Shown: positions 4,632-56,464 of the stretch, piece by piece
Layout of the letters: every line of letters starts with the position of its first letter
How positions within the stretch are numbered: the stretch's first letter is position 1
Origin: an uncultured Actinomycetota bacterium
GTDB lineage: Bacteria > Actinomycetota > Actinomycetes > Mycobacteriales > SCTD01
Direction of reading: 5' to 3'
DNA length: 64,000 bases
Assembly (NCBI GenBank): GCA_963726975.1
Contig: CAVSEK010000013.1
Coordinates: forward strand, 918,938 to 982,937
Position numbers and translations under genes: made by a program
The notes under the pieces: generated by a model
Databases searched by the model: none
Told to the model about the DNA's origin: nothing
What the model saw: only the letters and a program-made list of their open reading frames with translations

Positions 4632-4698
4632 GCGCCGCAACCTACCGAGCGGCCGGGCACGACCGCCCGTACGGGCGAGCGGGTGCGAGGCTGGGCCG

Positions 4699-5240
4699 GT
4701 GCCGCCTCCCGCTCCCCGCTGCGTCGTCGTGATGGGCGTGTCGGGCTCCGGCAAGACGACGGTCGCCCGGGGCGTCGCGGAAGCGCTGGGCTGGCCCTAC
4801 CGCGAGGGCGACGACCTGCACCCGCCGGCCAACGTCGCGAAGATGGCGGCCGGCACACCGCTGACCGACGCCGACCGGGAGCCCTGGCTGCGGCGGGTCG
4901 CCGAGGTGATCGGTGCGGCCGAGGCCGAGGGCGAGGGCCTCGTGCTCACCTGCTCCGCGCTGCGGCACCGCTACCGCGACGTGCTGCGCGACGGGCACCC
5001 GTCGGTGTGGTTCGCCCACGTGGCGCCCGACGCCCAGGTGCTGCGCGACCGGCTCGCCCGGCGGCGCGGCCACTTCATGCCGGCGTCGCTGCTGGACAGC
5101 CAGCTCGCCACGCTCGAACCCCTGGGACCCGACGAGCCGGGGACGGCGGTCGACAGCGCCGGCGGTCCGGAGCAGGTGGTCGCCGCGGTGCTCACCGCCC
5201 TCCGGGGCGACACGGGGTCGCCCTCGAGTCGGCCGGGTGA
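4699..5240 (+). pseudogene. gntK: Gluconokinase (GntK family), probable frameshift near the 3' end
   Basis: GTG 4699. The P-loop [15 protein letters not shown] and gluconokinase-like body ([42 protein letters not shown]) are in frame 1. Frame 1 has no stop until 6723. A frame-3 TGA at 5238-5240 overlaps pepA GTG 5237 (GTGA), which implies a 1-nt shift in the G-runs around 5205-5218. Confidence 0.65.
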
Positions 5241-6832: not shown

Positions 6833-7656
6833 GTGCCCGCTCCCCTGCTCGCCCTGCTCGCGCTCAAGGCCAAGCTCACCAGTGCCGCCGTGGTCGGGAC
6901 GGTGCTCGCGACCGCCACCGTGGGCGGCTCGGCCGTCGCCCTCGCGGCCGTCTCCTCGCCGGCACCGCAGCCGGTCGCCACGGCTGCCCAGGACGACGCG
7001 GCGGAGCCACCGGTCGCTCCGCTCGAGGGGGACCCGGCTGCCGCGCCGGTCGGTGCCGAGAGTGCCGACGACGACACCCCGGCCGACGGCGGGGACGCCC
7101 TCGACGACCCTGCCGGCGAGCCCGGCGACGACTCCGGCGACGACCTGCCGACGAGCCCGGCGGGGACACGCCTGCCGACCCCGCGTCCGACGGGGCGGGC
7201 TGCACCGGCAACCACGGACAGCACGTGTCGTCGGTCGCCCGGGCCGGGGGCGACGTCCGTACGGCCGCGCACGACGACTGCGGCAAGGGGGCCGGGCACG
7301 ACGCCACCGGCAGGACAGACCGAGACACCGACAACACCGGCAAGGCCGCCGACGACGCCGACGCCGACGAGCAGGGGCACGGCAAGCAGCCGGGGGCCGC
7401 GCCGTCGGGTCCCCCCGCGCCCGGCGGGGGGACCTCGGGCAAGAAGGCCCCCGGCACGAAGGCACCCGGCACGACCTCCGGCACGAAGACCGCCGAGCCG
7501 GCCCGGTCCGGGGCGTCGTCGGGCGGCGGGACGCGCAAGCACGCCGCCGAGGCACCGGCCGCACCGGCCGGGTCGCAGGGGGGCGACCGCACCTCGGGCG
7601 GGCACGGCGGCGGGGACGGCCGCGGGGGTCGCGGCGACGGGGGGTCGAAGGGCTAG
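6833..7656 (+). pseudogene. Hypothetical membrane-anchored/secreted acidic Pro/Gly-rich protein, one frameshift
   Basis: GTG 6833. The hydrophobic N-terminus LLALLALKAKLTSAAVVGTVLATATVGG and then an Asp/Pro-rich region are in frame 2. After ...GDDSGDD (about 7143) sense continues in frame 1 (PADEPGGDTPADPASDGAGCTGNHGQHVSSVARAGGDV...GGSKG*). No family was recognised. Confidence 0.45.
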
Positions 7657-7782
7657 CCGGACAGCAGGGGACGCCGCCCGCGGGAATGCCGCGGGGCCGA
7701 TGGCGACCTGTACTCCTCAGGTGGGAACATGACCCGGGCGCCGTCACGAGCAGCGCCCGCCGGACCTGCGGAGGAGCACGCC

Positions 7783-9159
7783 GTGACTGAGACCCAGCCC
7801 GTCGACCTCGTCGTCCTCGGCGGCGGCAGCGGGGGCTACGCCGCCGCCCTGCGCGCCGCCGAGCTCGGGATGAGCGTCGTGATGGTCGAGAAGGACAAGG
7901 TCGGCGGCACCTGCCTGCACCGCGGCTGCATCCCGACCAAGGCGCTGCTGCACTCCGCCGAGATCGTCGACACGTTCAAGGACTCCAGCCAGTTCGGCGT
8001 CCTCGGCTCGTTCGACAAGGTCGACATGGCGGGCGTCAACGCCTACAAGTCCAAGGTCGTCGAGGGGCTGTTCAAGGGCCTCACCGGTCTGGTCAAGAGC
8101 CGCAAGATCGAGGTCGTCCAGGGCACCGGCCGGCTGGTCTCCCCCACCGCCGTCGAGGTCGACGGGCGCACGGTCGAGGCCGGCCACGTCCTGCTCGCCA
8201 CCGGCTCGGTGCCCCGCTCGCTGCCCGGCCTGGAGATCGACCACGAGCGGGTCATCACCAGCGACGACGCGCTCGGGCTCGAGACGATCCCGGGCTCGGT
8301 GGTCGTGCTCGGCGCCGGCGCGATCGGCTGCGAGTTCGCGTCGGTGTGGAGCTCGTTCGGCGCCGAGGTGACCATCGTCGAGGCGCTGCCGCACCTCGTG
8401 CCCCTGGAGGAGGAGAGCAGCAGCAAGCTGCTCGAGCGGGCCTTCCGCAAGCACGGCATCAAGCAGGAGCTCGGCGCCCGGTTCGAGAAGGTCGAGCCGA
8501 CCGAGCAGGGCGTCCGGGTCAGCCTCGAGGGCGGCAAGACGATCGAGGCCGAGCTGCTGCTCGTCGCCATCGGCCGGGGTCCGGTCAGCAAGGACCTGGG
8601 CTACGAGCAGGCCGGCGTCGAGATGGAGCGCGGCTTCGTCAAGGTCGACGCGTACTGCCAGACGAACATCCCGACCATCAGCGCCGTCGGCGACCTCATC
8701 CCGACGCTGCAGCTCGCCCACGTCGGCTTCGCCGAGGGCATCCTCGTCGCGGAGCGGCTCGCCGGGCTGCCCGTCGCCCCGATCGACTACGACGGCGTCC
8801 CCCGGGTCACCTACTCGCACCCGGAGGTGGCCTCCGTCGGGCTGACCCGCAAGGTCGCCGAGGAGCGCGGCTACGAGGTGGTCGAGGCGACGTACGACCT
8901 CGCCGGCAACGGGAAGGCCCGCATCCTGGGCACGTCCGGCGCCGTGAAGGTGCTGGCGAGCAAGGACGGCCCGGTGATCGGCGTGCACATGGTCGGCGAG
9001 CGGGTCGGCGAGCTCATCGCCGAGGCGCAGCTCATCACCAACTGGGAGGCGCTGCCGAGCGAGGTCGCGCAGCTCATCCACCCGCACCCGACGATGTCCG
9101 AGGCCGTCGGCGAGGCCCACCTCGCCCTGGCCGGCAAGCCGCTGCACAGCCACGCCTGA
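7783..9159 (+). CDS. lpdA: Dihydrolipoyl dehydrogenase (E3)
   Basis: GGAGGAG at 7770-7776 is followed by GTG 7783. Motifs: VDLVVLGGGSGGY (FAD), redox-active GGTCLHRGCIPTK, VVVLGAGAIGCEF (NAD) and C-terminal HPHPTMSE. Confidence 0.9.
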   Translation: MTETQPVDLVVLGGGSGGYAAALRAAELGMSVVMVEKDKVGGTCLHRGCIPTKALLHSAEIVDTFKDSSQFGVLGSFDKVDMAGVNAYKSKVVEGLFKGLTGLVKSRKIEVVQGTGRLVSPTAVEVDGRTVEAGHVLLATGSVPRSLPGLEIDHERVITSDDALGLETIPGSVVVLGAGAIGCEFASVWSSFGAEVTIVEALPHLVPLEEESSSKLLERAFRKHGIKQELGARFEKVEPTEQGVRVSLEGGKTIEAELLLVAIGRGPVSKDLGYEQAGVEMERGFVKVDAYCQTNIPTISAVGDLIPTLQLAHVGFAEGILVAERLAGLPVAPIDYDGVPRVTYSHPEVASVGLTRKVAEERGYEVVEATYDLAGNGKARILGTSGAVKVLASKDGPVIGVHMVGERVGELIAEAQLITNWEALPSEVAQLIHPHPTMSEAVGEAHLALAGKPLHSHA

Positions 9160-9213
9160 CCGACCGCCGACCGCACCCCGCTGACCGCACCCCCTGAGGA
9201 GCCCACACCCACC

Positions 9214-10684
<1,471 letters not shown>

Positions 10685-23807: not shown

Positions 23808-24606
23808 TCAGACTGCGGGTCGGCGCCCGACGAGGTGGAAGACGCGGCTGAGGCGGCGGTACGGCTCGCGGTCCGCCGCCTCGAGCTCGACCGCGGTCAC
23901 CGCGTCCAGGTCGGTGCCCTCGACGGGCAGGTCCAGCCAGTCGGTGAAGAGCCACACGCCGTACCACGCGACCGGCTCGACCCCGGACCGGCGCAGCAGG
24001 TCGGACAGCCCCTCCACGGTGTCCGCCCGCGTCGGGCGGCCCAGCCCACCGGGCTCCCCTGCCGCGTCGGACGCCGCCAGCGCGTCGGCCCAGCGGCGCT
24101 CCAGGGCCGGCCGCACGGCGAGCGTCCGGCGGTTCAGCGCCAGCACCGACACGAGCCCGCCCGGCGCGGCGCAGGCGCACAGCGCGTCGACCAGCGGCGT
24201 CGGGTCGTCGAGGTACACCACCACCCCGTGGCAGAGCACCCCGGCGTACGTCTGCCCGTCCAGGGCGCGCGGCGCGTCCGCGCCGTCCGCCTGCACGAGG
24301 GCACCCGGTCGCGCACGCCGACCGGCTCGGCGGCGACCCGCGCCGCCGCCTTCTCCAGCATCGCCGCGGACGGGTCGAGCACGGTCACGTCGTGGCCGCG
24401 CCGGGCCAGCGGCAGCGACTGGTGCGCGGCGCCGCCACCGACGTCGAGCACGGCGGCGGGCGGCGCGGGCAGGTGGCGCAGCAGCTGCGCGTGCAGCACG
24501 CGGGTGCGCACCTGCCCCTCGACGGTCGCGTACGCGCCGTCGAGGGGCAGGCGTCGGCCAGCTCGGACCAGTCGGCCGGCGCGGGCCCGCGGAGCCGGCC
24601 GGTCAC
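23808..24606 (-). pseudogene. Class I SAM-dependent methyltransferase, two frameshifts
   Basis: GTG 24606 overlaps the MMPL stop (GTGA). VTGRLRGPAPADWSELADA is in one frame. LPLDGAYATVEGQVRTRVL...VLDVGGGAAHQSLPLARRGHDVTVLDPSAAMLE is in a second frame (shift about 24550). LVQADGADAPRALDGQTYAGVLCHGVVVYLDDP...HLVGRRPAV* is in a third frame (shift about 24300). Confidence 0.7.
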
Positions 24607-26870
24607 GCGGGGGAAGCCGCGGGCGACGCGGGTGCGGGGAGCGGCTCGGCACGCGAGCGCTCCGCCTGCTGCCGGTGCACGCGCGCGCTGGCGTGCCGGC
24701 CGAGCAGGGTGAGCAGCGACGGCAGCAGCAGCGAGCGCACGACGACGGCGTCGAGCAGCACTCCGAGCACCATGGCGCAGGCCAGCTCGCGGAAGGGGCG
24801 CAGCGGCACGAGCGCGAGCAGGCCGAAGCTGGCGGCGAGCGTCAGCGCGGCGGCCGTGATGGCCCGGCTGCTGTCCGGGACCGCGACGAGCAGCGCCTCG
24901 CGCAGCGACCTGGTGCGCGCCTCCTCCCAGACCCGCCCGACCGCGAAGATGTTGTAGTCCGAGCCCAGCGACACCAGCAGCACGGCGGCGGCGAACGGGA
25001 CGTAGAAGGTCAGCCCGGTGCCGCCGAGCAGGTCCTGGAAGACGAGCACGGTGAGGCCCAGGGCGGCGCCGAGCGCGAGCACGCTGCTGGCCAGCAGCAG
25101 CAGCGAGGTCCAGAAGGCCCGCAGGAAGAGCACGAGCATGACCAGGTTGACCAGCAGCGCGGCGATCGTCAGGCGCCGCAGGTCGCGCTGCGTCGCGCGC
25201 ACGATGAGCTCGGACAGCGCCGTGTCCCCGGCCAGGGACGCGGTGACCTGCGGCAGCCCCGCCGCGTCGAGCAGGCCCGGCAGGTCTTCGCGCAGCGCCG
25301 TCACCCCGTCGATGGCCGGGGCGCTGAGCGGCCGGGCAGCGAGCACGAGGAGCAGCCGCGCCGTGTCGCCGGAGGGGGCGACGAAGACGTGGAGGCGGTC
25401 GGCCAGCGGCAGGGTGCCCGGTCCCAGCACGGCCTGCACCTGTGGCTGCCCTCGCAACGCGTCGGCCAGCGCCCTGAGCTCCGCGGGCCGCTCCCCCAGA
25501 CCCGGTCCTTCCAGCAGCACCTCCGTGGGCGCGACGATGCCGGGCGCGAAGCCCGCGCGGGCGTTCTCGGCCGCTACCGCGACCGGGGAGTCCGAGGGGA
25601 GCGCGGCGATGAAGGAGACGCCGAGGTCGAGGTGCCGCAGCGGCAGGGCCGCGAGCAGGAGCGCGGCAGTCGTCAGACCGACGACGACCCCTGCCGTCCG
25701 TCGGCGGGTCAGGCGGCGGACCAGCCGCTCGGGCGTGCGCCCGTGCCGGACGTGCAGCGCCGTCACGGGAGCCGGCCAGAGCGCCCCGCTGCCGAGCACG
25801 GCCAGCACGGCCGGGACGAGGGTGACCGTGACGAGCAGGGCGAGCAGCACGGTGAGCGCGAGCCCCGGACCGAGGCCGTGGAAGAGCGGGGACCTCGCGA
25901 CGGTCAGGGCGCCGGTACCGGCGCTGACGGTGAGCCCGGCGACGAGCAGGATCGGCACCGTGCCGGCGATGGCGCGCTCCACCGCGTCGCGCACCTCGCC
26001 GCCCGCGGCGAGCTCCCGGCGCAGCCCGGCGAGGAAGAAGACCGTGTAGTCGGTGACGACCCCCAGCAGCAGGGCGACGAGCAGGGGGCTGACCTCGTCG
26101 GGGACGGTCAGCCCCAGTGCGACCGCGACGGTGTTGACCAGGCGGAGCGTCACGACGGTGGCCGTCCCGGCGACCACGAGCGCGACGACCGCAGCGACGG
26201 GAGAGCGGAAGGCCAGCGCGACGAGCAGCGCGATGGCGACGACGGTCGCCGTCTCCACCACGGGCAGCGCCCCCTCGATGGTCTCCGCCTGCTCGGCCCG
26301 CGCCGGGATGGACCCGGTGATGCCGACGAGCGCGTCGTCCGGGTCGCCGAGGTAGCGGTCGGCGTACTCCTGCGCCGCCTGCCGCTGGTCGTCGAACCCG
26401 GCGCCGGGCGGCAGGAACAGCGATGTGAGCACGGTGGTCCCCTGCTCGGCCGCTCCCGGGAACAGGCCCAGCGCGTTGGGCAGCGGCAGGGCGCCGAGCA
26501 CCAGCGGCACGTCGCCCTGCCCCTGGTCGACCTGCACCGCGCGCAGCACGGCCCCCGCCTGGGCCTCCAGCGACAGCCCGTCCGGGTCGCGCTGCACCAC
26601 GGTCACCCGGCTGAGCAAGGGGAAGCCGAACGCCTCGTACGAGCGCAGCTCCGCCTGGATCGCCGGGTTGTCGGCGCTCACCAGACCGCCCAGGCCTCCG
26701 CCGCCCCCGCCGGACGGAGCGGGCAGCAGCACCGCGGCGACCGCCAGCAGGGCCCAGCCGGCCAGGACGGCCCAGCGCAGGCGCACGACGAGACGCGCGT
26801 AGCCCTGGGCCAGGCGCCCGCGCCGCCGGTGGCGCGGGCGGGTCAGCAGCCCGGACAGCGGTGCGGTCAC
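24603..26870 (-). CDS. MMPL family (RND-type) transporter
   Basis: GTG 26870 overlaps the upstream stop (GTGA). It has 755 codons and two 6-TM bundles with large extracytoplasmic loops. Motifs: GVVTDYTVFFL and SLGSDYNIFAVGR. Confidence 0.85.
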   Translation of the reverse strand: MTAPLSGLLTRPRHRRRGRLAQGYARLVVRLRWAVLAGWALLAVAAVLLPAPSGGGGGGLGGLVSADNPAIQAELRSYEAFGFPLLSRVTVVQRDPDGLSLEAQAGAVLRAVQVDQGQGDVPLVLGALPLPNALGLFPGAAEQGTTVLTSLFLPPGAGFDDQRQAAQEYADRYLGDPDDALVGITGSIPARAEQAETIEGALPVVETATVVAIALLVALAFRSPVAAVVALVVAGTATVVTLRLVNTVAVALGLTVPDEVSPLLVALLLGVVTDYTVFFLAGLRRELAAGGEVRDAVERAIAGTVPILLVAGLTVSAGTGALTVARSPLFHGLGPGLALTVLLALLVTVTLVPAVLAVLGSGALWPAPVTALHVRHGRTPERLVRRLTRRRTAGVVVGLTTAALLLAALPLRHLDLGVSFIAALPSDSPVAVAAENARAGFAPGIVAPTEVLLEGPGLGERPAELRALADALRGQPQVQAVLGPGTLPLADRLHVFVAPSGDTARLLLVLAARPLSAPAIDGVTALREDLPGLLDAAGLPQVTASLAGDTALSELIVRATQRDLRRLTIAALLVNLVMLVLFLRAFWTSLLLLASSVLALGAALGLTVLVFQDLLGGTGLTFYVPFAAAVLLVSLGSDYNIFAVGRVWEEARTRSLREALLVAVPDSSRAITAAALTLAASFGLLALVPLRPFRELACAMVLGVLLDAVVVRSLLLPSLLTLLGRHASARVHRQQAERSRAEPLPAPASPAASPA

Positions 26871-44352: not shown

Positions 44353-45168
44353 TCAGACGAGGGGCAGGGCGCGCGGCCTCGGGTCCTCGCCGCGGACCAC
44401 GGCGGCGAACCGCTCGAGGACCGGCCGCCAGAGCTCAGCCGTCTCCGGGAGCTCGCGCAGGGTGCGCTCGGTGAGCGCGTCGACGTCGACGCCGCCCTCG
44501 CGCAGCGCCTCGTCCTCCTGCGCCAGCCAGCTGCGCACCAGGTCCTCGTCGGCCTCGGCGTGGAACTGCATCCCCCAGGCCCGCTCCCCGAGCCGGAACA
44601 TCTGGTGCGGGTAGCGGGTGCTGCTCGCCAGCAGCGTCGCGCCCGGCGGCAGCTCGGTCACGACGTCCCAGTGCCACTGCACGCAGATCCAGCTCATCGG
44701 CGTGTCCCAGACGAGCGGGTCGGCGCCCGCGACGTCGCGCTTGCCGACGAGCCGGGCACCGAGCTCGGGACCCTCCTCGCCGGGCTCGACGACGCCTCCG
44801 GTCGCCTCGGCGAGCAGCTGCGCGCCGAGGCAGACCGCCAGCACGGGCACGCCGCGCTCGACCGCCTCGCGCAGCAGCGCCTTCGTCGGCGCCAGCCAGG
44901 GGGCCGAGGCGTCGTCGTAGGCCTGCTGCGGCCCGCCGAGCACGACGAGCGCGTCGTGCCCGTCGACGCTGCTCGGCAGCGCCTCGCCGGCGTACGGGTG
45001 GTGCACGTCGAGCGCGAGCCCGGCGGCCGGCAGCCACTGCGCGAGCAGCCCGGGGCCCTCGTCGGCCGCGTGCTGCACGACGAGCGCCCGCAGGGGCGAG
45101 CGGTCGGCGGTCCCGGTCGCGGTCCTGGTCCCGGTCCTGGTCACGGTCCTGGTCACGATGACGCTCAC
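44353..45168 (-). CDS. Type 1 glutamine amidotransferase-like protein
   Basis: GTG 45168 overlaps the glnA2 stop (GTGA). Nucleophile elbow VLAVCLGAQLL and MQFHAE. The N-terminus carries a TRTVTRTGTRT hexanucleotide-repeat stretch. Confidence 0.75.
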   Translation of the reverse strand: MSVIVTRTVTRTGTRTATGTADRSPLRALVVQHAADEGPGLLAQWLPAAGLALDVHHPYAGEALPSSVDGHDALVVLGGPQQAYDDASAPWLAPTKALLREAVERGVPVLAVCLGAQLLAEATGGVVEPGEEGPELGARLVGKRDVAGADPLVWDTPMSWICVQWHWDVVTELPPGATLLASSTRYPHQMFRLGERAWGMQFHAEADEDLVRSWLAQEDEALREGGVDVDALTERTLRELPETAELWRPVLERFAAVVRGEDPRPRALPLV

Positions 45169-46502
45169 AGCACCGGCAGGTAGCGGCCGAGCTCGAAGGG
45201 CGTGACCTCGCTGCGGTAGGCGCGCCACTCCTCCCGCTTGTTGCGCAGGAAGAAGTCGAAGACGTGCTCGCCGAGCGTCTCGGCCACGAGCTCGCTGCGC
45301 TCCATGGTGCTGATGGCCTCCGCGAGGCTGCCCGGCAGCGGTGTCATGCCCATCGCCCGCAGCTCCTGCTCCGGCAGCGACCAGACGTCGTCCTCGGTGC
45401 CCGGCGGCAGCGGGTACTCCTGCTCGACGCCCCGCAGCCCCGCCGCGAGCAGCAGCGCGAAGCACAGGTACGGGTTGGTGGCGCTGTCGGGGCTGCGCAC
45501 CTCGATGCGCGTCGACCCGCTCTTGGTCGGCTTGTACATGGGCACGCGCACGAGCGCGCTGCGGTTGTTGGTCCCCCAGCAGACGTACGGCGGCGCCTCT
45601 CCCCCGCTGACCAGCCGCTTGTAGGAGTTGACCCACTGGTTGGTCACCGCGGTGATCTCGGCCGCGTGCCGCAGCAGGCCCGCGATGAAGTGCTTGGCCG
45701 TGGTCGACAGGCGGGCGGGGTCGCCGCCGTCGTGGAAGGCGTTGCGGTCGCCCTCGAACAGGGACAGGTGGGTGTGCATCCCGCTGCCCGGCTGGTCGCT
45801 GAACGGCTTGGGCATGAACGTCGCGTAGATGCCCTGCGACAGGGCGACCTCCTTGATGACGTGCCGGGTCGTGAGCACGTTGTCGGCGGTCGTCAGCGCG
45901 TCGGCGTAGCGCAGGTCGATCTCCTGCTGCCCGGGGGCGACCTCGTGGTGGGAGTACTCCACCGAGATGCCCATGCTCTCCAGCACCGTGATCGCCTGCC
46001 GGCGGAAGTCCTGGCTGACGTCGTGCGGCGTGAGGTCGAAGTAGCCGCCGGCGTCGACCGGCTCGGGCACCAGCCCGCGGGCCGGGAGCGCCTTGAGCAG
46101 GAAGAACTCGATCTCCGGGTGGGTGTAGAAGGTGAAGCCGGCGTCGGCGGCCTTGGCGAGCGCCCGGCGCAGGACGTGCCGCGGGTCGGCCCAGCTCGGC
46201 GTCCCGTCGGGCATCGTGATGTCGCAGAACATCCGGGCGGTGCCCGGCGAGGTGCCCCGCCACGGCAGCACCTGGAACGTCGCGGGGTCGGGCTTGGCGA
46301 GCATGTCGCTCTCGTGCACCCGGGCGAAGCCCTCGATCGCCGAGCCGTCGAAGCCGATGCCCTCGGCGAACGCGCCCTCGAGCTCGGCCGGGGCGATGGC
46401 GACGGACTTCAGCGTGCCGAGCACGTCGGTGAACCACAGCCGGATGAAGCGGATGTCGCGCTCCTCGAGCGTGCGGAGCACGAACTCCTGCTGCTTGTCC
46501 AT
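45165..46502 (-). CDS. glnA2: Glutamine synthetase paralogue GlnA2
   Basis: Intact 445-aa track ORF. Motifs: FIRLWFTDVLG and PGSGMHTHLS. Confidence 0.9.
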   Translation of the reverse strand: MDKQQEFVLRTLEERDIRFIRLWFTDVLGTLKSVAIAPAELEGAFAEGIGFDGSAIEGFARVHESDMLAKPDPATFQVLPWRGTSPGTARMFCDITMPDGTPSWADPRHVLRRALAKAADAGFTFYTHPEIEFFLLKALPARGLVPEPVDAGGYFDLTPHDVSQDFRRQAITVLESMGISVEYSHHEVAPGQQEIDLRYADALTTADNVLTTRHVIKEVALSQGIYATFMPKPFSDQPGSGMHTHLSLFEGDRNAFHDGGDPARLSTTAKHFIAGLLRHAAEITAVTNQWVNSYKRLVSGGEAPPYVCWGTNNRSALVRVPMYKPTKSGSTRIEVRSPDSATNPYLCFALLLAAGLRGVEQEYPLPPGTEDDVWSLPEQELRAMGMTPLPGSLAEAISTMERSELVAETLGEHVFDFFLRNKREEWRAYRSEVTPFELGRYLPVL

Positions 46503-46601
46503 GCCGGCAGCCTGTCAGCCCGGTGACGGGTGTCCCCGGCGCGCACCGGGAAGGGTCACCGTCAAGCAGTTGATCCAGCAACCACCTTCGCGAGGAGCGA
46601 C

Positions 46602-47489
46602 ATGACGACGACCAGCAGCACGCCCGTCACCGGGTCCGGCACCTTCCGCCTCGGCGGCGACCTCGACGTCTCCCGCCTCGGCTACGGCGCCATGCGCATC
46701 ACCGGCAAGGGCATCTGGGGCCCGCCGGCCGACCTGGACACCGCCCGCGCCGTCCTGCGCCGCGCCGTCGAGCTCGGCGTCGACTTCATCGACACCGCCG
46801 ACAGCTACGGCCCGTACGTCAGCGAGGACCTGATCCGCGAGGCGCTGCACCCGTACGACGGGGTGGTGGTCGCCACCAAGGGCGGCCTGACCCGCACGCG
46901 GCCCCGACGTGTGGCCGCCGGTCGGGCCGGCCGGAGTACCTGCGGCAGTGCGTCGAGATGAGCCTGCGCCGCCTCGGCGTCGAGCGGATCGACCTGTGGC
47001 AGCTGCACCGCATCGACAGCAAGGTGACCGGCCGAGGAGCAGTTCGGCCCTCATGGCCGACGTCCAGCAGGAGGGCAAGGTCCGGCACCTGGGCCTGTCC
47101 GAGGTCTCCGTCGAGCAGATCGAGGCGGCCCGCAAGCACGTCGAGGTCGTCAGCGTGCAGAACCTCTACAACCTCGGCAACCGGCAGTCCGAGGACGTCC
47201 TGGAGTACTGCGAGCGCGAGGGCATCGCGCTTCATCCCGTGGTTCCCGGTGGCGGCCGGCGAGCTGGCGCGAGCCGGGCGGCGTGCTCGACGAGATCGCC
47301 GAAGGACCACCACGCCACGCACGCCCAGCTCGCGCTCGCCTGGCTGCTGCGCCGCTCGCCGGTGATCCTGCCGATCCCGGGCACCGGCTCGGTCGCGCAC
47401 CTGGAGGAGAACTGCGCCGCCGCGAGGTCGAGCTGACCGACGCGGAGTACGACGCGCTGACCGAGGCCGGCCAGCACGTCGCCGCCTGA
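46602..47489 (+). pseudogene. Aldo/keto reductase, at least 7 frameshifts
   Basis: GAGGAG is followed by ATG 46602. Recognisable segments hop frames as follows. Frame 3: [10 protein letters not shown]...DTADSYGP...ATKGGL. Frame 1: VWPPVG. Frame 2: [33 protein letters not shown]. Frame 3: AEEQFG. Frame 1: [21 protein letters not shown]...EREGIA. Frame 2: [16 protein letters not shown]. Frame 3: VLDEIA. Frame 1: [16 protein letters not shown]...[17 protein letters not shown]. Frame 3: [15 protein letters not shown]. Confidence 0.8.
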
Positions 47490-47554
47490 GCGGCTCCGCG
47501 TCGCCGGCCCGTCCGCGCTTCGCGCGGGCGGGCCGTTCGGCGTTGCGTGAGCGC

Positions 47555-49337
47555 ATGGCGCAGCTGCGGGTGGCGCTCGCCCAGGTCGACAGCACGGTCG
47601 GCGACCTCGCCGGCAACGCCGACGTCGTCAGCCGCTGGGCGGCGCGGGCCCGCGACGCAGGGCGCGCACCTGGTGGTGCTTCCCGGAGATGCTGCTGACC
47701 GGCTACCCGCCGGAGGACCTCGTGCTGCGCGGCTCGTTCGTGCAGGCGTCGCTGGACGCGCTGCGAGGCGCTCGCCGGGCCGGCTGCAGCCGAGGGCGCG
47801 GCGACCTGGCGGTCGTCGTGGGCTACTGCGGCCGCACCGAGCAGCCGGCGCCCGCGGTCGGGCGCCCGGCCGGCGAGCCGCAGAACAGCGCCGCGCGTGC
47901 TGCACGGCGGCGCGCGTCGTGGCCCGCTACGCCAAGCACCACCTGCCGAACTACGGCGTCTTCGACGAGTTCCGCTACTTCGTGCGCGGCGACCGCTTCC
48001 CGGTCGTCCGGCTGCACGGCGTCGACGTCGCGCTGTCGATCTGCGAGGACCTCTGGCAGGAGGGCGGCCCGGTGCGCGTCGCCCGGGAGGCCGGCGCCGG
48101 GCTGCTGCTGTGCCTGAACGGCTCGCCGTACGAGCGCGGCAAGGACGACGTCCGCGGCGAGCTGGTGGCCCGCCGCGCCGTCGAGGCCGGCTGCGCGCTG
48201 GCGTACGTCAACACGGTCGGCGGGCAGGACGAGCTGGTCTTCGACGGCGACTCGCTCGTCGTCGGACGCCTCCGGCGACGCTGGTCGCCCGCGCCCCGCT
48301 GTGGCAGGAGGGGCTGATGTGCGTCGACCTGGACCTGCCGGCGGCGACCCGCGCCGCGACCGGGCCGGTCGACGCCGGCGACGGGACCGATCATGACGGT
48401 CGAGCACGTGGTGCGTGTCGGAGCAGCCGCTCGCCGCCGTACGAGCCGCTGGTGCCCGGGATCGCCGAGCCCCTCGACGAGCTCGCCGAGCTGTGGGGCG
48501 CGCTGGTCACCGCGACCCGCGACTACGTCGAGAAGAACCGGTTCCGCTCGGTGGTGCTCGGCCTGTCCGGCGGGATCGACAGCGCGCTGGTCGCGACGAT
48601 CGCCTGCGACGCGCTCGGTCCGGAGCGGGTGCACGTGGTCGGGATGCCGAGCGACTGGAGCAGCGGGCACTCGGTGACCGACGCCGAGGACCTGGCCCGG
48701 CGGCAGGGCCTGCAGTGGCAGCTGGTGCCGATCAAGCCGATGGTCGAGGCCTACCTGGCGTCGGTCGAGCTGACCGGGCTGTCGGTGGAGAACCTGCAGG
48801 CCCGGGTGCGCGGCACGCTGCTGATGGCGCTGTCCAACGAGCACGGGCACCTGGTGCTCACGACCGGCAACAAGAGCGAGCTGGCGACCGGCTTCTCGAC
48901 CCTGTACGGCGACAGCGCCGGCGGGTTCGCGCCGATCAAGGACGTGCCGAAGTCGCTGGTGTGGGAGCTGGCGCGCTGGCGCAACGCCGCTGCCGCCCGA
49001 GGCGGCGTCGCCGTGATCCCGCCGAGCAGCATCGACAAGCCGCCGTCGCGCCGAGCTCGCGCCCGGGCAGCTCGACAGCGACCGGCTGCCGCCGTACGAC
49101 GTGCTCGACGCGCTGCTGGACGCCTACGTCGAGCAGGACCGCGGGCGCGCCGAGCTGGTCGCGCGCCGGCTTCGACGGCGAGCTCGTCGACCGGGTCGTG
49201 CGGCTGGTCGACGCCGCCGAGTACAAGCGCCGGCAGAACCCGCCCGGGCCGAAGGTGACCGGGCGGGCGTTCGGCCGCGACCGGCGGCTGCCGATCACCT
49301 CGCGCTGGCGCGAGCTGGCTGCGCCGACCGCCGGTGA
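47555..49337 (+). pseudogene. nadE: Glutamine-dependent NAD+ synthetase, about a dozen frameshifts; 3' end uncertain (49337 or 49369)
   Basis: ATG 47555 opens MAQLRVALAQVDSTVGDLAGN (frame 2). The following segments each sit in the next frame: AHLVVLP (f3), EMLLTGYPPEDLVLRGSF (f1), RVVARYAKHHLPNYGVFDE...ICEDLWQ (f3), TLVARAPLWQEG (f2), [10 protein letters not shown] (f3), SEQPLA (f1), PYEPLVPG...[13 protein letters not shown]...[17 protein letters not shown] (f2), [23 protein letters not shown] (f3) and [24 protein letters not shown]...[10 protein letters not shown] (f1). Confidence 0.8.
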
Positions 49338-49434
49338 GCCACCCCGAGGCCCGGCCCGAGCCGGCCTGAGGGCAGGCTGGCGGCGTCCGGGGACCTCGTC
49401 GGGGCGCCCCGAGCCCGGCGACCGGGAGCCCCGC

Positions 49435-50276
49435 ATGACCGAGACCCACCCTGTACGGCGGCACGTCACTCGCGCCGCGTCACCGTGCGCGACCTGCAGC
49501 GCGGCCAAGGAGCGCGGTGAGCGCTGGGCGATGCTCACGTCGCTACGACATGCTCACCGCCGGGGTCTTCGACGAGGTCGGCGTGCCCGGTGCTGCTCGT
49601 CGGCGACAGCGCCGGCAACAACGTGCTCGGCTACGACACGCACCGTGCCGGTGACGGTGGAGGACCTGCTGCCGCTCGTGCGCGGCGTCGCGGCCGGGAC
49701 CCGACGCGCGCGCTCGTCGTCGCGGACCTGCCGTTCGGCTCCTACCAGGGCTCCCCCGCGCAGGCGCTGGAGACCGCCGCCCGCTTCCTGCGCGCCGGGC
49801 GCGCAGGCGGTCAAGCTCGAGGGCGGCCGGCGCGTGCTGCCGCAGGTCGAGCTGCTCGTGGAGTCCGGGCGTCCCGGTCATGGGCCACCTCGGGCTGACC
49901 CCGCAGTCGGTCAACACCCTCGGCGGCTACCGCGTGCAGGGCCGGGGCGACGGCCGGCGACCGGCTCGTCGAGGACGCGCTCGCGCTGCAGGCGGCCGGG
50001 CGCGTTCGCGCTCGTGCTCGAGGTGGTGCCCGGCCGACCTCGCCGAGCGGGTGACCGAGGAGCTGACGATCCCCACGATCGGCATCGGCGCCGGCGCCGG
50101 GCTGCGACGCGCAGGTGCTGGTCTGGACCGACATGGCCGGGTTGACCCCGGGCGCGGGCCCGAAGTTCCTCAAGCGCTACGCCGACCTGCGCACCGTGCT
50201 CGGCGACGCGGCGCGGGCCTACACCGACGACGTGCGCGAGGGCCGCTACCCCGGCCGCGGAGCACGGCTACCCTGA
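49435..50276 (+). pseudogene. panB: 3-methyl-2-oxobutanoate hydroxymethyltransferase, about 12 frameshifts
   Basis: ATG 49435. The ordered frame path is listed in the finding on 46602-50653. The last segment ends at TGA 50274-50276. Confidence 0.8.
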
Positions 50277-50653
50277 GCGAGGCCCTCCAGCGCGGCGGCG
50301 GCGCTCCACGACGACCGCGCCGGTGCCGCGGCGGACGATGACGACCTCGGCCCGCTCGTCGGTCGGGTTGCTCTCGCGGTGCACCGGTGCGCGCCGGCAC
50401 GTGCACGAAGTCGCCCGGCGTCGCCCTGCACGACGCCGGCCGCGGTCTCGACCCGGAACGCGCCGCGCACGACGTAGGCGACCGTGTCGTGCTCACCGTG
50501 GTGGTGCCAGCCGCTCGTCGAGCCCGGCTCGGTGACGGCCAGCCCGGACCAGACGTCGTGCAGGACGACGGCCTCGAAGCGCTGCATGCCGGCGGTGGGG
50601 TGGCCCGGCGCGAGCGCGTCGGCCGCGACCTTGGACACGGGGGTCTCGCTCAT
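50268..50653 (-). pseudogene. Cupin domain protein, at least 2 frameshifts
   Basis: ATG 50653 opens MSETPVSKV...GSTSGWHHHGEHDTVAYVVRGAFRVE. Then GDFVHVPA, and then [28 protein letters not shown] in other frames. It ends at TAG 50268-50270. Confidence 0.6.
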
Positions 50654-50724
50654 GCCGCGGAGCGTACGGCCGGCCGGGGTCGTGCCGCTCAGCCGCGCAG
50701 CGCGGGGCCCGGCGACGTGGCACT

Positions 50725-52584
50725 GTGACCTGGACCACACCCAGGGAGGCCCTCGTGACCGAGCTGCTCGACCGTGCGACCACCAGCCCCGCCGCGGCCC
50801 GGGTCCGCGACTGGCTCGACGCCTTCGACGGCGCGCTGCAGGCGCGCGATGCGCGGGCCGCCGCGGCGCTGTTCGAGACCGGCGCCTTCTGGCGCGACCT
50901 CGTGTCGTTCACCTGGAACATCTACACGGCGGAGGGGCGCGACGCCATCGAGGTCATGCTCGGCGACGGCCTCGCCTGGGCCGGGCCGTCCGGCTGGGAT
51001 CTGGACGAGGAGCCGACCGAGGCCGGGGGCGTGACGGAGGCCTGGCTGCGGTTCCGGACCGCTGTCGGCCGGGGTGAGGGCCTGCTGCGGCTGCGCGAGC
51101 AGGACGACGGGACCGTGCTCGCCTGGACGCTGCTCACGACCCTGCAGGAGATCGAGGGCCACGAGGAGCCGCGCGGCGACCGGCGGCCGAAGGGGGCCGA
51201 GCACGGTGCCCGGCGCGACCGGGAGTCGTGGCGGGAGGCGCGCGAGCGCGAGGCGGCCGAGCTCGGGCGCAGCGTGCAGCCGTACGTCGTCGTCGTCGGC
51301 GGCGGGCAGGGCGGGATCGCCCTGGGCGCGCGGCTGCGCTCGCTGGGCGTCCCCGCCGTGGTGCTGGAGAAGGACGAGCGGCCCGGCGACTCCTGGCGCA
51401 AGCGCTACAAGTCCCTGTGCCTGCACGACCCCGTCTGGTACGACCACCTGCCGTACCTGAAGTTCCCCGACACCTGGCCGGTCTTCGCGCCGAAGGACAA
51501 GATCGCCGACTGGCTCGAGATGTACACGCGCGTCATGGACCTCGACTACTGGGGCTCGTCGACCGCGACCTCGGCCCGGTGGGACGAGGACGCGCAGCGG
51601 TGGGAGGTCGTCGTCGACCGGGCCGGCGAGCAGGTGGTCCTGCGGCCGGAGCACCTCGTGATGGCGCTGGGCGTCTCCGGCAAGCCGAACGTGCCCGAGG
51701 TGCCCGGCCAGGACCGGTTCCGCGGCGACCAGCACCACTCGTCCCAGCACCCCGGACCGGACGCCTACCGCGGCAGGAAGGCCGTCGTCGTCGGCTCCAA
51801 CAACTCGGCACACGACATCTGCGCCGCCCTGTGGGAGGCGGGTGCGGACGTGACGATGGTGCAGCGCAGCAGCACGCACGTCGTGCGCAGCGAGTCGCTC
51901 ATGGACCTCGCGCTCGGCGACCTCTACTCCGAGCGGGCCGTCGCGTCCGGCACGACCACGGAGAAGGCGGACCACGTGTTCGCGTCCCTGCCGTACCGGA
52001 TCATGCACGAGTTCCAGATCCCGGTCTACGACGCCATCCGGGAGCGCGACGCGGCCTTCTACGACCGGCTGGCGGCAGCCGGGTTCGACCTGGACTGGGG
52101 CGACGACGGCTCCGGGCTGTTCATGAAGTACCTGCGGCGGGGCTCCGGCTACTACATCGACGTGGGCGCCTCCGAGCTCGTGGCGAACGGCGACGTGCAC
52201 CTCTCGCGCGGGCAGGTGCGCGAGCTCACCGAGACCGCGGTCGTGCTCGAGGACGGCACCGAGCTGCCCGCCGACGTCGTCGTCTGGGCCACCGGCTACG
52301 GCTCGATGAACGGCTGGCTGCGCGACCTCATCAGCCCCGAGGTGGCCGACCGGGTGGGGAAGGTGTGGGGTCTGGGCTCGGACACGACCAAGGACCCCGG
52401 GCCCTGGGAGGGCGAGCAGCGCAACATGTGGAAGCCCACGCAGGTGCCGCACCTGTGGTTCCACGGGGGCAACCTGCACCAGTCGCGCTACTACTCGCTG
52501 CCGCTGGCCCTGCAGCTCAAGGCCCGCCAGGTCGGCCTCGACACGCGGGTGCACGGGCTGGCACCCGTGCACCACACGGGCTAG
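50725..52584 (+). CDS. Flavin-containing monooxygenase-like NAD(P)/FAD-dependent oxidoreductase
   Basis: VVVVGGGQGGIALG (FAD), RFRGDQHHSSQH and AVVVGSNNSAHD (NADP). Intact ORF. The start is GTG 50725 or GTG 50755, the latter preceded by AGGGAGG. Confidence 0.8.
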   Translation: MTWTTPREALVTELLDRATTSPAAARVRDWLDAFDGALQARDARAAAALFETGAFWRDLVSFTWNIYTAEGRDAIEVMLGDGLAWAGPSGWDLDEEPTEAGGVTEAWLRFRTAVGRGEGLLRLREQDDGTVLAWTLLTTLQEIEGHEEPRGDRRPKGAEHGARRDRESWREAREREAAELGRSVQPYVVVVGGGQGGIALGARLRSLGVPAVVLEKDERPGDSWRKRYKSLCLHDPVWYDHLPYLKFPDTWPVFAPKDKIADWLEMYTRVMDLDYWGSSTATSARWDEDAQRWEVVVDRAGEQVVLRPEHLVMALGVSGKPNVPEVPGQDRFRGDQHHSSQHPGPDAYRGRKAVVVGSNNSAHDICAALWEAGADVTMVQRSSTHVVRSESLMDLALGDLYSERAVASGTTTEKADHVFASLPYRIMHEFQIPVYDAIRERDAAFYDRLAAAGFDLDWGDDGSGLFMKYLRRGSGYYIDVGASELVANGDVHLSRGQVRELTETAVVLEDGTELPADVVVWATGYGSMNGWLRDLISPEVADRVGKVWGLGSDTTKDPGPWEGEQRNMWKPTQVPHLWFHGGNLHQSRYYSLPLALQLKARQVGLDTRVHGLAPVHHTG

Positions 52585-53327
52585 CCCCGCAGAGCGCGCT
52601 CCAGCAGCGCCCGCGCCTCGACGAGGCTCGGTCCGTACCACGTCAGGTGCCGGCCGCTCACGCAGGCGGCGGGCACCCCCGGGAACGCCTCAGGACCGTC
52701 GTCGGGCGTGAAGGCGTACGGCTCGTCGGGCAGCACGACGAGGTCGACGCCGTCCACCGGCGGGGTGAAGCGCGGGTAGCGCTCCGCGCTGTCGGCGAGC
52801 ACGTTGTCGACGCCCAGGCGCGAGAGCACGTCGCCGGTGAAGGTGCCCGAGCCGACCGCCATCCAGGGCCGTCGCCAGACCGGGACGACGGCCGTGCGCC
52901 GCGGCCCGTCGTAGGGCGCCCGCCAGACGGTGCGGGCCTCGTCGAGCCAGCCCGGCCGGTCGAGACCGCAGGCGCCGAGCATGCGGCCGAGCGAGTCGAG
53001 CGCCTCGGGGACGGTGCGCGGGAAGGTCGTCCAGACGGCGACCCCCGCCTCGCGCAGGGCGGCGAGGTCGACCTCGCGGTTCTCCTCGGCGTTCGCCAGG
53101 ACGAGGTCGGGGCGCAGGTCCAGCACGGCCTCGACGTCGGGGTTCTTCGTGCCGCGGACACGGGTCACTGCCAGGTCCGCTGGGTGCGAGCACCAGTCGG
53201 TGGCGCCGACGAGCAGCCCGGGGGCGGTGACCGCGACCGCCTCGGTGAGGGACGGCACGAGGGAGACGACCCGGGAGACCTGCCCCGGGTCGAGCTCGCG
53301 GCCGAGGTCGTCAGACGTCGGTGACAC
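52581..53327 (-). CDS. Cobalamin-binding / BtuF-TroA-like helical-backbone receptor protein without signal peptide
   Basis: VVSLVPSLTEAV, GTKNPDVEAVLDLRPDLVLAN, and a PBP type-III-like fold by eye. Its TAG shares the palindrome CTAG with the convergent FMO stop. Confidence 0.65.
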   Translation of the reverse strand: MSPTSDDLGRELDPGQVSRVVSLVPSLTEAVAVTAPGLLVGATDWCSHPADLAVTRVRGTKNPDVEAVLDLRPDLVLANAEENREVDLAALREAGVAVWTTFPRTVPEALDSLGRMLGACGLDRPGWLDEARTVWRAPYDGPRRTAVVPVWRRPWMAVGSGTFTGDVLSRLGVDNVLADSAERYPRFTPPVDGVDLVVLPDEPYAFTPDDGPEAFPGVPAACVSGRHLTWYGPSLVEARALLERALRG

Positions 53328-53991
53328 GCAGACCAGCGTGCGCCTTGTAGCGGCGGTTGACCGAGATCAGGTTGGCCGTCAGCGCCTCCACCTGGTGGGC
53401 GTTGCGCAGCCGCCCGCCGTAGACGCCGCGCATGCCCGGGACGAGGGAGGCCAGCGCCTGCACCAGGTCCGTGGCGCCGCGGTCGTCGCCCAGCACGAGC
53501 ACGTCGGTGTCGACGGTGTCCACCGCCTCGTCCAGCAGCAGCACGGCGCTGACGTGGTGGAAGGCGGCGACCACCCGGCTGTCCGGGAGCACCGCGGCCG
53601 CCTGCTGCGCCGCGCTGCCCTCCTCCACCGCCAGGGCGAAGGCACCCTGCTTGTCGAAGCCGAGCGGGTTGACGCAGTCGACGACGACCTTGCCCGCCAG
53701 CTCGCCCGCGAGCCCCTGCAGCAGCTCCCGGTGCCCGTCCCAGGGCACGGCGACCACGACCACGTCGGCGTCCCGGGCGGCCGCGGCGTTGTCCGCGCCG
53801 GACACCCGCTCGGGCAGGCCCTCGGCCGCCTGCTGCGCACGCTCGGCGGACCGCGAGCCCAGCACGACGCGCACGCCGGCCAGCGCGAAGCGCCGGGCCA
53901 GGCCGCGCCCCTGCTCCCCCGTGCCGCCCAGCACGGCCACGGTGACGGTCGTCGGGTCGGGCGGGGTGGGCGGCGGCGTGGCGGAGGTCAT
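53311..53991 (-). CDS. NADPH-dependent F420 reductase (Npd/FNO family)
   Basis: VAVLGGTGEQGRGLA Rossmann motif. 226-aa intact ORF that overlaps the downstream gene by 17 nt. Confidence 0.8.
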   Translation of the reverse strand: MTSATPPPTPPDPTTVTVAVLGGTGEQGRGLARRFALAGVRVVLGSRSAERAQQAAEGLPERVSGADNAAAARDADVVVVAVPWDGHRELLQGLAGELAGKVVVDCVNPLGFDKQGAFALAVEEGSAAQQAAAVLPDSRVVAAFHHVSAVLLLDEAVDTVDTDVLVLGDDRGATDLVQALASLVPGMRGVYGGRLRNAHQVEALTANLISVNRRYKAHAGLRVTDV

Positions 53992-55051: not shown

Positions 55052-56464
55052 TCAGGCGCGGAAGAGCACGTCGCGCCGGACCGGGTCGGCGCGCACCAGC
55101 GCGACGTCGAGCGTCTGACCGAGCGGCAGGTCGTCGCCCTCGCACCGGGCCCGCACGGCCGGGTCGGCCAGCTGCACGACCCCGGCGTGGGCTCCCGAGC
55201 CGACGACCTGCGCGCGGAAGCGCTCCCCGGTGCGTCCCTGGAGCACCAGCGCCTCGGCGAGGTCCGTGCCGGCGCGCTCGAGCTCGGACGACCTCCGCCC
55301 GGCCGCGGCCATCACCGCAGGCAGCTCCGGCAGGGCCGTCCGCACGTCCTCGGGGACCGGCACGCCCGCCTGCAGGGCGACACAGGTCTGCAGCACGTAG
55401 CGGTCGGCCAGCCGCCGCAGCGGCGCCGTCGCGTGCGCGTACGGCCCGCCGACGGCGCTGTGGGTCGTCAGCTCCGGTGGCGCGCCGTCGAAGGCGGTGT
55501 AGCCGGCGCCCCGCAGCAGCCGGGGGGCCAGGGCGAGCAGGGCCGCGGCCGGCCCGTCGCTGGGGTCGAGCCGCGAGACGACGGCGGCGTACGGCTCGTC
55601 CTGCGCCCACGGCAGGCCGAGCGCGAGGGCGCTGCGGCGCAGCGCCTCGACGTCGGCAGGGTCCGGGTCCGGCATGGTGCGCAGCAGCCCGGTGCCGCCG
55701 TCGAGCATGAGGCGGGCGGCCACCGCACCGGTGAGCAGGCTGATCTGCGCGTTCCACCCCTCGGCCGGGAGCGCGGCGCGCAGCCGCAGGAGAGGACGCC
55801 CTGCGGCGTCGAGGTCGACCTCCTGCTCCAGGGACGGCAGGTCGACCGCACCGCGCTCCCGGCCGCGCTGCTGGCGCAGGAGCCCGATCTCGCGCAGCAG
55901 CTGCAGCTGCTCGTCGGCCGTGCCGGCGTCGAGCCGGCCCTGCACCTCGCCGTAGGTGAGCTGGGCGCGGGAGCGCACGAGGGCGCGGCGCACGTCGACG
56001 CGGTCGGGCTCGCCCTCGGGGTCCAGGTGCACGTCCCAGACGACGGCCGGACGGTCGACGGACGGCAGGAGGCTGGCGGCGCCCTCGCCGAGGACGGGCG
56101 GGTGCAGCGGCACGCGGGCGTCCGGGGCGTAGAGCGTCTCCCCGCGGGACCGCAGCGCGGTGTCGAGGGCCCCTCCGGGGCGGACGAAGGCCGACAGGTC
56201 GGCGATGGCGTAGCGCACGCGGTAGCCGGCGCCGTCGCGGTGCAGCGCCAGTGCCTGGTCGAGGTCCCGGCTGCCCTCCGGGTCGACGGTCACGAACGGG
56301 ACGTCGGTGAGGTCCTCCTCGGGCAGCGAGGGAGCCGCGGCGGCGCGCTCGGCCTCGGCGAGCGCCTCGGGCCCGAACTCCTCGTGCACCCCCAGCTCGG
56401 CGCGCAGGTCGGCGAAGGCCCCCGCCGCCGACGGCTCCGGCAGGCGGACCCGCACCGACGGCAC
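55052..56464 (-). CDS. RNB-domain ribonuclease (RNase II/R family, no obvious CSD/S1 domains)
   Basis: GTG 56464 lies 2 nt after the cobT stop. Motifs: VDPEGSRDLDQAL and HSAVGGPYAHATAPLRRLADR. Confidence 0.8.
   Translation of the reverse strand: MPSVRVRLPEPSAAGAFADLRAELGVHEEFGPEALAEAERAAAAPSLPEEDLTDVPFVTVDPEGSRDLDQALALHRDGAGYRVRYAIADLSAFVRPGGALDTALRSRGETLYAPDARVPLHPPVLGEGAASLLPSVDRPAVVWDVHLDPEGEPDRVDVRRALVRSRAQLTYGEVQGRLDAGTADEQLQLLREIGLLRQQRGRERGAVDLPSLEQEVDLDAAGRPLLRLRAALPAEGWNAQISLLTGAVAARLMLDGGTGLLRTMPDPDPADVEALRRSALALGLPWAQDEPYAAVVSRLDPSDGPAAALLALAPRLLRGAGYTAFDGAPPELTTHSAVGGPYAHATAPLRRLADRYVLQTCVALQAGVPVPEDVRTALPELPAVMAAAGRRSSELERAGTDLAEALVLQGRTGERFRAQVVGSGAHAGVVQLADPAVRARCEGDDLPLGQTLDVALVRADPVRRDVLFRA

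Follow-up and report, generated by a model that had tools for sequence, protein, structure and literature searches.

Four consecutive genes of an uncultured actinomycetotal bacterium, encoding an aldo-keto reductase (AKR), the glutamine-dependent NAD+ synthetase NadE, the ketopantoate hydroxymethyltransferase PanB, and a Cupin_2 protein, are interrupted by dense frameshifts that are in all likelihood (about 90%, judged from the sequence) an artefact of assembly or consensus calling, by whatever route, and would be absent from the organism. We favor this reading because real decay would bring deletions, substitutions, a drift toward A/T, and stop codons, and no such signature was seen. The four-gene frameshift block holds no biological novelty. 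The genes lie within a 64-kb stretch of DNA, here called the window, which was analyzed as a whole and probably derives from a long-read metagenome assembly. An earlier note on this DNA had preferred a locally low-quality, insertion-biased assembly to real pseudogenes, and every sequence-intrinsic test that we ran agrees with that preference.

GC3 frame tracking and a frameshift-aware aligner were used in place of lists of open reading frames, which are uninformative because every frame is open in a 76% G+C genome. Indels were counted from a custom frameshift-aware protein-to-DNA alignment to orthologues and checked in a DNA alignment of the window with two relatives, 90% (L081) and 84% (L082) identical. 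The former is the closest DNA found and has the same gene order; its 90% identity is enough for placing each indel but not for proving an artefact. It is a contig from an ENA metagenome assembly, and its 'contig_' name is of the kind that assemblers assign.

The alignments revealed a 3.5-kb error-rich patch at positions 46,896 to 50,421 that holds approximately 39 indel events. Its density of about 11 events per kb is some 80-fold higher than the approximately 0.13 per kb elsewhere in the window (Poisson P of about 4e-60 for the clustering). Across the four genes, there are 35 to 37 extra bases versus only 2 or 3 missing ones (sign test, P = 4e-8, for about 36 inserted bases). In the three-way DNA alignment, 35 insertion events (one of 2 nt, the other 34 of 1 nt) and two 1-nt deletions in coding DNA proved specific to the window. 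The earlier note had put the shifts, by eye, at about 35 in 4 kb, nearly all of them +1. The earlier note had also suggested a comparison with the closest relatives, and neither L081 nor L082 carries any of the 35 insertion events.

The frame hopping is also visible in a GC3 frame plot and in the three-frame translation, and a GC3-based Viterbi frame census divided positions 46,583 to 50,724 into about 33 frame segments; elsewhere, segments were gene-sized. These analyses, together with the protein and DNA alignments, bear out the description of four consecutive frameshift-ridden genes. The affected block had been placed at 46,602 to 50,653, but the patch is only 3.5 kb long and cuts through genes: the first insertion (46,896) lies 295 nt inside the AKR gene, and the last (50,419 to 50,421) falls 230 nt short of the start codon of the cupin gene. 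Since it starts and ends within genes and covers both coding strands, the patch is defined by coordinates rather than by gene or strand. The spacing of the events is only marginally nonuniform, with a largest gap of 616 nt versus a mean of 93 nt (the probability of so large a gap being roughly estimated at about 5%). A search for repeats and mobile-element ends at the patch borders returned only chance-level short matches.

The AKR gene (46,602 to 47,489, plus strand) has seven extra bases (near 46,896, 46,910/24, 47,026, 47,039/49, 47,228, 47,269/73, and 47,299) and one missing base (near 47,422) according to the frameshift-aware and DNA alignments. Its repaired product matches PF00248 over positions 1 to 286 of 291 (227.6 bits; above the curated cut-off) and shares 83% identity with its orthologue in L081; once repaired, the gene can be regarded as intact in concept. 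The nadE gene (47,555 to 49,369, plus strand) has 13 extra bases and one missing base (near 47,798). A frame hop every 60 to 130 nt, as reported earlier, describes panB but does not hold throughout, as nadE contains clean stretches of 352 nt (47,915 to 48,264) and 616 nt (48,433 to 49,046). Repaired NadE matches CN_hydrolase (positions 1 to 253 of 256; 224.4 bits) and NAD_synthase (positions 4 to 241 of 242; 111.7 bits), both above the curated cut-off, and retains 133 of 134 invariant columns. It is 89.4% identical to the intact L082 NadE (residues 1 to 595), and the best identity among the species-representative genomes scanned was 83%.

In panB (49,435 to 50,276, plus strand), the alignments gave 14 or 15 extra bases, including one 2-nt insertion at about 49,694 to 49,703, and a probable 1-nt deletion near 50,269 leaves the TGA at 50,274 to 50,276 out of frame. 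The repaired protein matches PF02548 over positions 1 to 258 of 259 (348.5 bits; above the curated cut-off), retains all 42 invariant columns, and is 93% identical to an intact 275-amino-acid protein (P0121), the best match in the protein database. The Cupin_2 gene (50,268 to 50,653, minus strand) has two extra bases, near 50,386 and 50,419, in alignments to orthologues and relatives, and its 5' 230 nt are clean. Its repaired product matches PF07883 over positions 3 to 69 of 70 (48 bits; above the curated cut-off).

Both flanking genes served as controls. The glnA-type glutamine synthetase gene on the left (45,165 to 46,502, minus strand) has no frameshifts; it is 90.3% identical to L081 DNA with no gaps in 1,356 nt, and all 150 of its invariant columns are retained. 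The flavin-containing monooxygenase (FMO) gene on the right (50,755 to 52,584, plus strand) has no frameshifts compared with three orthologues, and its product is identical to a database protein (P0001) and otherwise at best 79% identical. Three control regions (44,389 to 45,090, 52,587 to 53,375, and 55,058 to 56,233) were likewise free of frameshifts. The earlier observation of unshifted flanks thus stands, but the rest of the window is not clean: isolated frameshifts occur in four other genes (a ParA-like gene, gcvT, pepA, and a methyltransferase gene), which indicates that the assembly is indel-prone in general. These isolated indels are of both signs, and the nadE gene of L081 carries a +1 doublet of its own.

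After repair, all four proteins are full length, with end-to-end Pfam matches and 83 to 94% identity to intact orthologues. We looked for relaxed selection in the repaired genes in the form of stops, A/T third positions, and altered invariant residues and saw none. The repaired frames of the four genes contain no stop codons, GC3 is 99.3%, above the 97.6% of the remaining window (odds ratio, 0.29; P = 1e-5), and NadE and PanB combined retain 175 of 176 invariant residues. The earlier note had likewise described the peptide segments between shifts as conserved in appearance and stop-free. From these sequence features, we infer that the true AKR, nadE, panB, and cupin genes are intact and under purifying selection.

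A very recent inactivation of the whole block is very unlikely by comparison. It would turn the four genes into pseudogenes and imply dependence on external NAD precursors and pantothenate or second gene copies elsewhere. The deposited sequence does contain frameshifts, and the other broken genes in the window are what a decaying genome would display. However, about 39 neutral indels should bring many more substitutions and some stop codons, and such accompanying changes are undetectable here. In vivo, +1 mutations arise mainly from slippage in homopolymer runs, whereas homopolymer extension is impossible for 19 of the 33 insertions that were typed, and no insertion involves a run of more than 3 nt. 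The disregard of the patch for gene boundaries also speaks against inactivation. Finally, bacterial indel spectra are deletion-biased (PMC2817411) and bacterial mutation is AT-biased (PMC2936535), and both the excess of insertions and the GC3 of the repaired genes run contrary to these biases.

Conserved repaired frames would also be expected of a functional gene whose shifts are real and decoded, whether by dense programmed +1 ribosomal frameshifting, by transcriptional slippage, or by RNA editing that removes the extra bases. This is the sole point in favor of such decoding, which we consider next to impossible. The shift sites share no slippery motif, have no stop or rare codon, and contain no run longer than 3 nt, and in most cases the previous frame remains open for tens of nucleotides past the switch. 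They are also unconserved, the genes of the relatives being plain and uninterrupted. We know of no bacterial precedent for recoding at about 36 sites that are spread over both strands and four unrelated genes of a coordinate-defined patch. It is also extremely improbable that the extra bases are real and stem from a localized burst of nonhomopolymer +1 mutations over 3.5 kb, too recent for other mutations to have followed. In such a burst, nadE and panB could be knocked out together by an undescribed form of error-prone repair or gap-filling synthesis in which a G or C is placed beside a C or G.

If the frameshifts are an artefact, as we favor, the pattern of the insertions may point to its origin. 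A pair of two different bases at a third codon position, either of which can be deleted synonymously, accounts for 25 of the 33 typed insertions, and 21 of these 25 hetero-doublets are C+G. Simulated random insertions in the same genes fit the doublet pattern in 41% of cases (P = 5e-5), and only 1 of 33 events has homopolymer extension as its sole explanation, versus 34 to 54% expected (P = 2e-5); both comparisons are close rather than identical, the observed events having been typed by scoring against orthologues and the simulated ones against the true protein. About seven insertions fall off third codon positions, and 13 doublets can also be read as a GG-to-GGG or CC-to-CCC extension. At 49,543, 49,586, 50,001, and 50,097, the two bases of the window doublet are exactly those present in the two relatives. 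Homopolymer-slip error of the 454, Ion Torrent, or Nanopore style was ruled out by the typing of the insertions and the simulation.

Judging by the doublets, it is reasonably probable that two haplotypes were collapsed and that the consensus retained both of their alleles at sites where they differ. Reads in the patch would come from two slightly different haplotypes, belonging either to coassembled strains or to a recombined segment with polymorphism in the population. About 1% of sites would distinguish the two haplotypes, in most cases through a synonymous G/C change at the third position of a codon. Consensus calling or polishing would then have chosen neither allele and written both in succession, creating a 1-nt insertion per site. 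A long-read error model may favor a deletion in every read over a rare G-to-C miscall in half of them. Two collapsed haplotypes explain the confinement to 3.5 kb only if a locally polymorphic or recombined tract is also assumed, and they leave the near-absence of deletions unexplained.

The artefact could alternatively have arisen where long reads were very sparse or left unpolished, such as in a gap fill from poorly corrected or raw reads or in a failed polishing window, with residual errors that happen to be insertions. The sharp bounds of the patch and its jump in error density suit this route, and the clean sub-stretches within nadE could be windows in which polishing succeeded. The isolated indels of both signs in the window and the indel of L081 likewise fit a long-read assembly with uneven support. 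A raw long read, however, would show an error rate far above 1%, with deletions and substitutions mixed in; here, deletions amount to less than 0.1%, and neither A/T third positions nor altered invariant residues are in excess. Random insertions also fail to reproduce the surplus of doublets or the scarcity of homopolymer-only events. We regard this route as possible but somewhat doubtful. The example given in the earlier note, a gap fill with uncorrected long reads, found no particular support, the error rate being about 1% rather than 10% and the synonymous hetero-doublets being nonrandom, which better suits a consensus over two collapsed haplotypes.

On the artefact reading, NAD and pantothenate biosynthesis should both be scored as intact in this organism, and auxotrophy should not be inferred. 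The patch is of practical rather than biological importance, as a warning: automatic annotation will call four pseudogenes or gene fragments here, and several elsewhere, which would lower completeness and impair metabolic reconstructions. The occurrence of two different bases at a synonymous site is a diagnostic that needs no reads, and it could be used to flag consensus errors from collapsed strains in long-read metagenome-assembled genomes.

The block resembles the pseudogene clusters of Mycobacterium leprae and Sodalis in that adjacent genes, biosynthetic ones included, are interrupted by frameshifts. Unlike genuine pseudogene clusters, it shows no predominance of deletions, no substitutions or stop codons, and no drift toward A/T. 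Typical residual errors of long reads are associated with homopolymers, and those of Nanopore reads are rich in deletions, whereas the patch consists almost entirely of insertions, has hardly any pure homopolymer events, and is far denser in errors than the surrounding window. Its likeness to long-read (Nanopore or PacBio) metagenomes lies in the 1-nt indels that break genes and can be detected by frameshift-aware protein alignment. Long-read metagenome assemblies are known to contain frameshift errors (Arumugam et al. 2019, PMC6469205), and the scattered, isolated frameshifts in the window and in L081 fit that picture.

Another comparison is with long-read assemblies in which the collapse of two alleles creates apparent frameshifts along with indel errors (Cosentino et al. 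2021, PMC8445201). That case concerns a diploid eukaryote with genome-wide heterozygosity and not, as here, a single 3.5-kb patch in a bacterial and probably metagenomic contig, where the two haplotypes are deduced from the doublet pattern rather than observed. The likeness is that frameshifts occur in conserved genes, are dominated by indels rather than substitutions, and are tied to coexisting variants; in the diploid case, they vanish after haplotype separation or read correction.

The window has a G+C content of about 76%. GC3 is 98.4% in undisturbed genes (two training genes) and 97.6% over the window outside the patch genes, with many genes at 99 to 100%. Because third codon positions are nearly all G or C, the reading frame, and hence any frameshift, is visible from base composition alone. 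We tracked the frame with a frame plot, three-frame translation, and a Viterbi frame census. Frame segments were gene sized over most of the 64 kb, and the same census gave about 33 short segments within 46,583-50,724. Outside this interval, nearly all same-strand frame switches coincide with a stop codon, i.e., a gene boundary; inside it, no switch does so.

Indels were counted and typed per gene with our own protein-to-DNA aligner, which allows 1- and 2-nt frameshifts, against orthologues from related contigs and later from closer ones. The relatives are Frankiales/Mycobacteriales metagenome-assembled genomes. The aldo-keto reductase gene (AKR; 46602-47489, +) contains 7 inserted bases and 1 deleted base, and its repaired protein is 83% identical to that of the closest relative, L081. 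Glutamine-dependent nadE (47555-49369, +) has 13 inserted bases and 1 deleted base (89.4% identity over residues 1-595 to the intact protein of a second relative, L082). In panB (49435-50276, +), 14 to 15 bases are inserted, including one 2-nt event, and one base is probably deleted just before the stop codon; the repaired protein is 93.7% identical to that of L081 and 93% identical to P0121, an intact 275-aa database PanB. The cupin gene (50653-50268, -) has 2 inserted bases and no firm deletion (about 71% identity to L081). panB and the cupin gene are convergent with overlapping 3' ends (cupin TAG, 50270-50268; panB TGA, 50274-50276), and the panB TGA is in frame only with one base restored (window, TACCCTGA; relatives, TACCGCTGA). 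In each of the two firm -1 events of the patch, a short run seems to have lost one of its bases.

We then aligned the window DNA three ways with L081, which shares 90% identity and the gene order glnE-GATase-glnA-AKR-nadE-panB-cupin, and with L082 (84%). Specific to the window were 34 single-nucleotide insertions, one 2-nt insertion (35 events in all), and two 1-nt deletions in coding sequence within 46,896-50,419, which bears out the earlier estimate by eye of about 35 shifts, almost all +1. Indel density is approximately 11 events/kb in the patch and 0.13/kb elsewhere in the window (Poisson P ~ 4e-60). The four genes are hit as originally described, but the affected block spans 3.5 kb (46896-50421) rather than 4 kb, with both ends inside genes, and the proposed frame change every 60 to 130 nt does not hold for nadE, where stretches of 352 and 616 nt are free of shifts. 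Frameshift-aware alignment detected no frameshifts in control genes on both sides of the patch, and glnA (45165-46502, -) aligned to L081 over 1,356 nt with zero gaps. On the right, the flavin-containing monooxygenase (FMO; 50755-52584, +) is 100% identical to database protein P0001, with the next best homologue at 79%. Just downstream of the glnA stop, between the gene end (45165, minus strand) and a GATase-matching region (44389-45090), lie four copies of a 12-nt tandem repeat, CGGTCCYGGTCM (45108-45155); its minus strand probably specifies a short peptide repeat of Asp/Gln/Arg type.

Once the extra bases were removed, the four patch genes contained no in-frame stops. Only 9 of 1,248 third positions are A/T (99.3% GC3), a significantly lower share than elsewhere in the window. 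Of the columns invariant among 60 orthologues, NadE keeps 133/134 and PanB 42/42 (glnA control, 150/150), and each repaired protein gives a single, uninterrupted, end-to-end Pfam match. Judged by sequence, the repaired genes look fully functional. Bacterial mutation spectra contain more substitutions than indels, so several stops would be expected alongside some 39 neutral indels. Under neutral drift, bacterial deletions are expected to exceed insertions (PMC2817411), and substitutions are AT biased (PMC2936535). Real pseudogenes are therefore very unlikely: stops, A/T drift, and a deletion excess are all missing, all but one of the invariant residues are kept, and the patch borders are independent of gene borders and strand. 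The chance of programmed recoding is negligible, given that the shift sites lack a slippery motif, runs there are all ≤3 nt, the switch points have no stop, and the relatives' genes are unshifted. Sequence-intrinsic evidence and relatives at 84 to 90% identity thus support an assembly artefact, as the earlier note had argued. Substitution errors at the 0.5% level may also be compatible with the evidence. The patch is of no biological novelty.

To type the +1 events, all nearby single-base deletions were tried, and those best restoring similarity to six orthologues were kept; 4,000 simulated insertions into these repaired genes served for comparison. Third-position pairs of two different adjacent bases, either of which can be deleted synonymously, made up 25/33 events (21 were C+G), against a simulated expectation of 41% (33% if only G/C was inserted; P = 5e-5). 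Homopolymer extension was the sole explanation for 1/33, compared with 34 to 43% in simulations and 54% under a pure homopolymer model (P = 2e-5). This scarcity rules out homopolymer-type error (454, Ion Torrent, or Nanopore chemistry), and the event pattern is not what in vivo slippage would give. At 49543, 49586, 50001, and 50097, the DNA alignment shows that the bases found in the two relatives are exactly those adjacent in the window (e.g., TCG/TCC in the relatives versus TCGC, and CCG/CCC versus CCCG).

The surroundings are clean in the control genes, but four further window genes are frameshifted, and their joined frames each give one full-length Pfam match across the junctions. A ParA/MinD-like ATPase gene (2537-3307, +) occupies three frames owing to a pair of +1 events (near 2617 and near 3068), and its AAA_31 and CbiA matches span both junctions; the second event reads GG[G C]GTC, the doublet type of the patch. 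The glycine-cleavage T protein gene gcvT (3545-4633, -) has one +1 near 4445 (GCV_T 1-255/255 plus GCV_T_C). The M17 leucyl aminopeptidase gene pepA (5238-6722, +) has one -1 at ~6473, where CCG GAG appears as CCGAG (Peptidase_M17 2-310/310), and a class I SAM-dependent methyltransferase gene (23838-24640, -) has two -1 events near 24550 and 24305 (Methyltransf_25 1-97/97). A gluconokinase-like P-loop gene (4723-5240, +; ~169 codons) runs without an in-frame stop for >900 nt, and a TGA at 5237 in another frame suggests a further frameshift near its 3' end. In a low-complexity coding stretch rich in Asp/Pro/Gly (7066-7389, +), an apparent frame switch at ~7148 could be another -1 error or merely unusual composition. 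The relative L081 (ERZ25039476 contig_21808) belongs to an ENA metagenome assembly whose contigs are named in assembler style. Its nadE (4136-5939) carries its own +1 doublet, GT[C G]CCC at 5027, so that only 280 codons are called as a gene; its GGDEF-EAL gene (7637-9915) is called in three pieces, and this assembly is also imperfect.

We infer that the extra bases of the patch stem from a consensus over two haplotypes. Haplotypes differing mostly by synonymous G/C changes, the only synonymous kind that a genome at 99% GC3 would tolerate, would have fed one consensus, with both alleles written side by side at each polymorphic site. A likelihood-based long-read polisher could prefer both bases, since it may score a pair of "deletion" errors as more probable than one rare G-to-C miscall. 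Confinement to this single tract would need an extra assumption. The version in the earlier note, a patch of low coverage or left unpolished in which the insertions are random, is less likely and does not predict the doublet pattern. The two-haplotype consensus would refine the artefact reading of that note, and the window as a whole is consistent with a long-read assembly prone to indels, in which this one patch is particularly poor. Long-read metagenome assemblies are known to suffer from frameshifts (PMC6469205), and the collapsing of alleles is a documented cause of indel errors and of genes that look frameshifted when genomes are assembled from long reads (PMC8445201).
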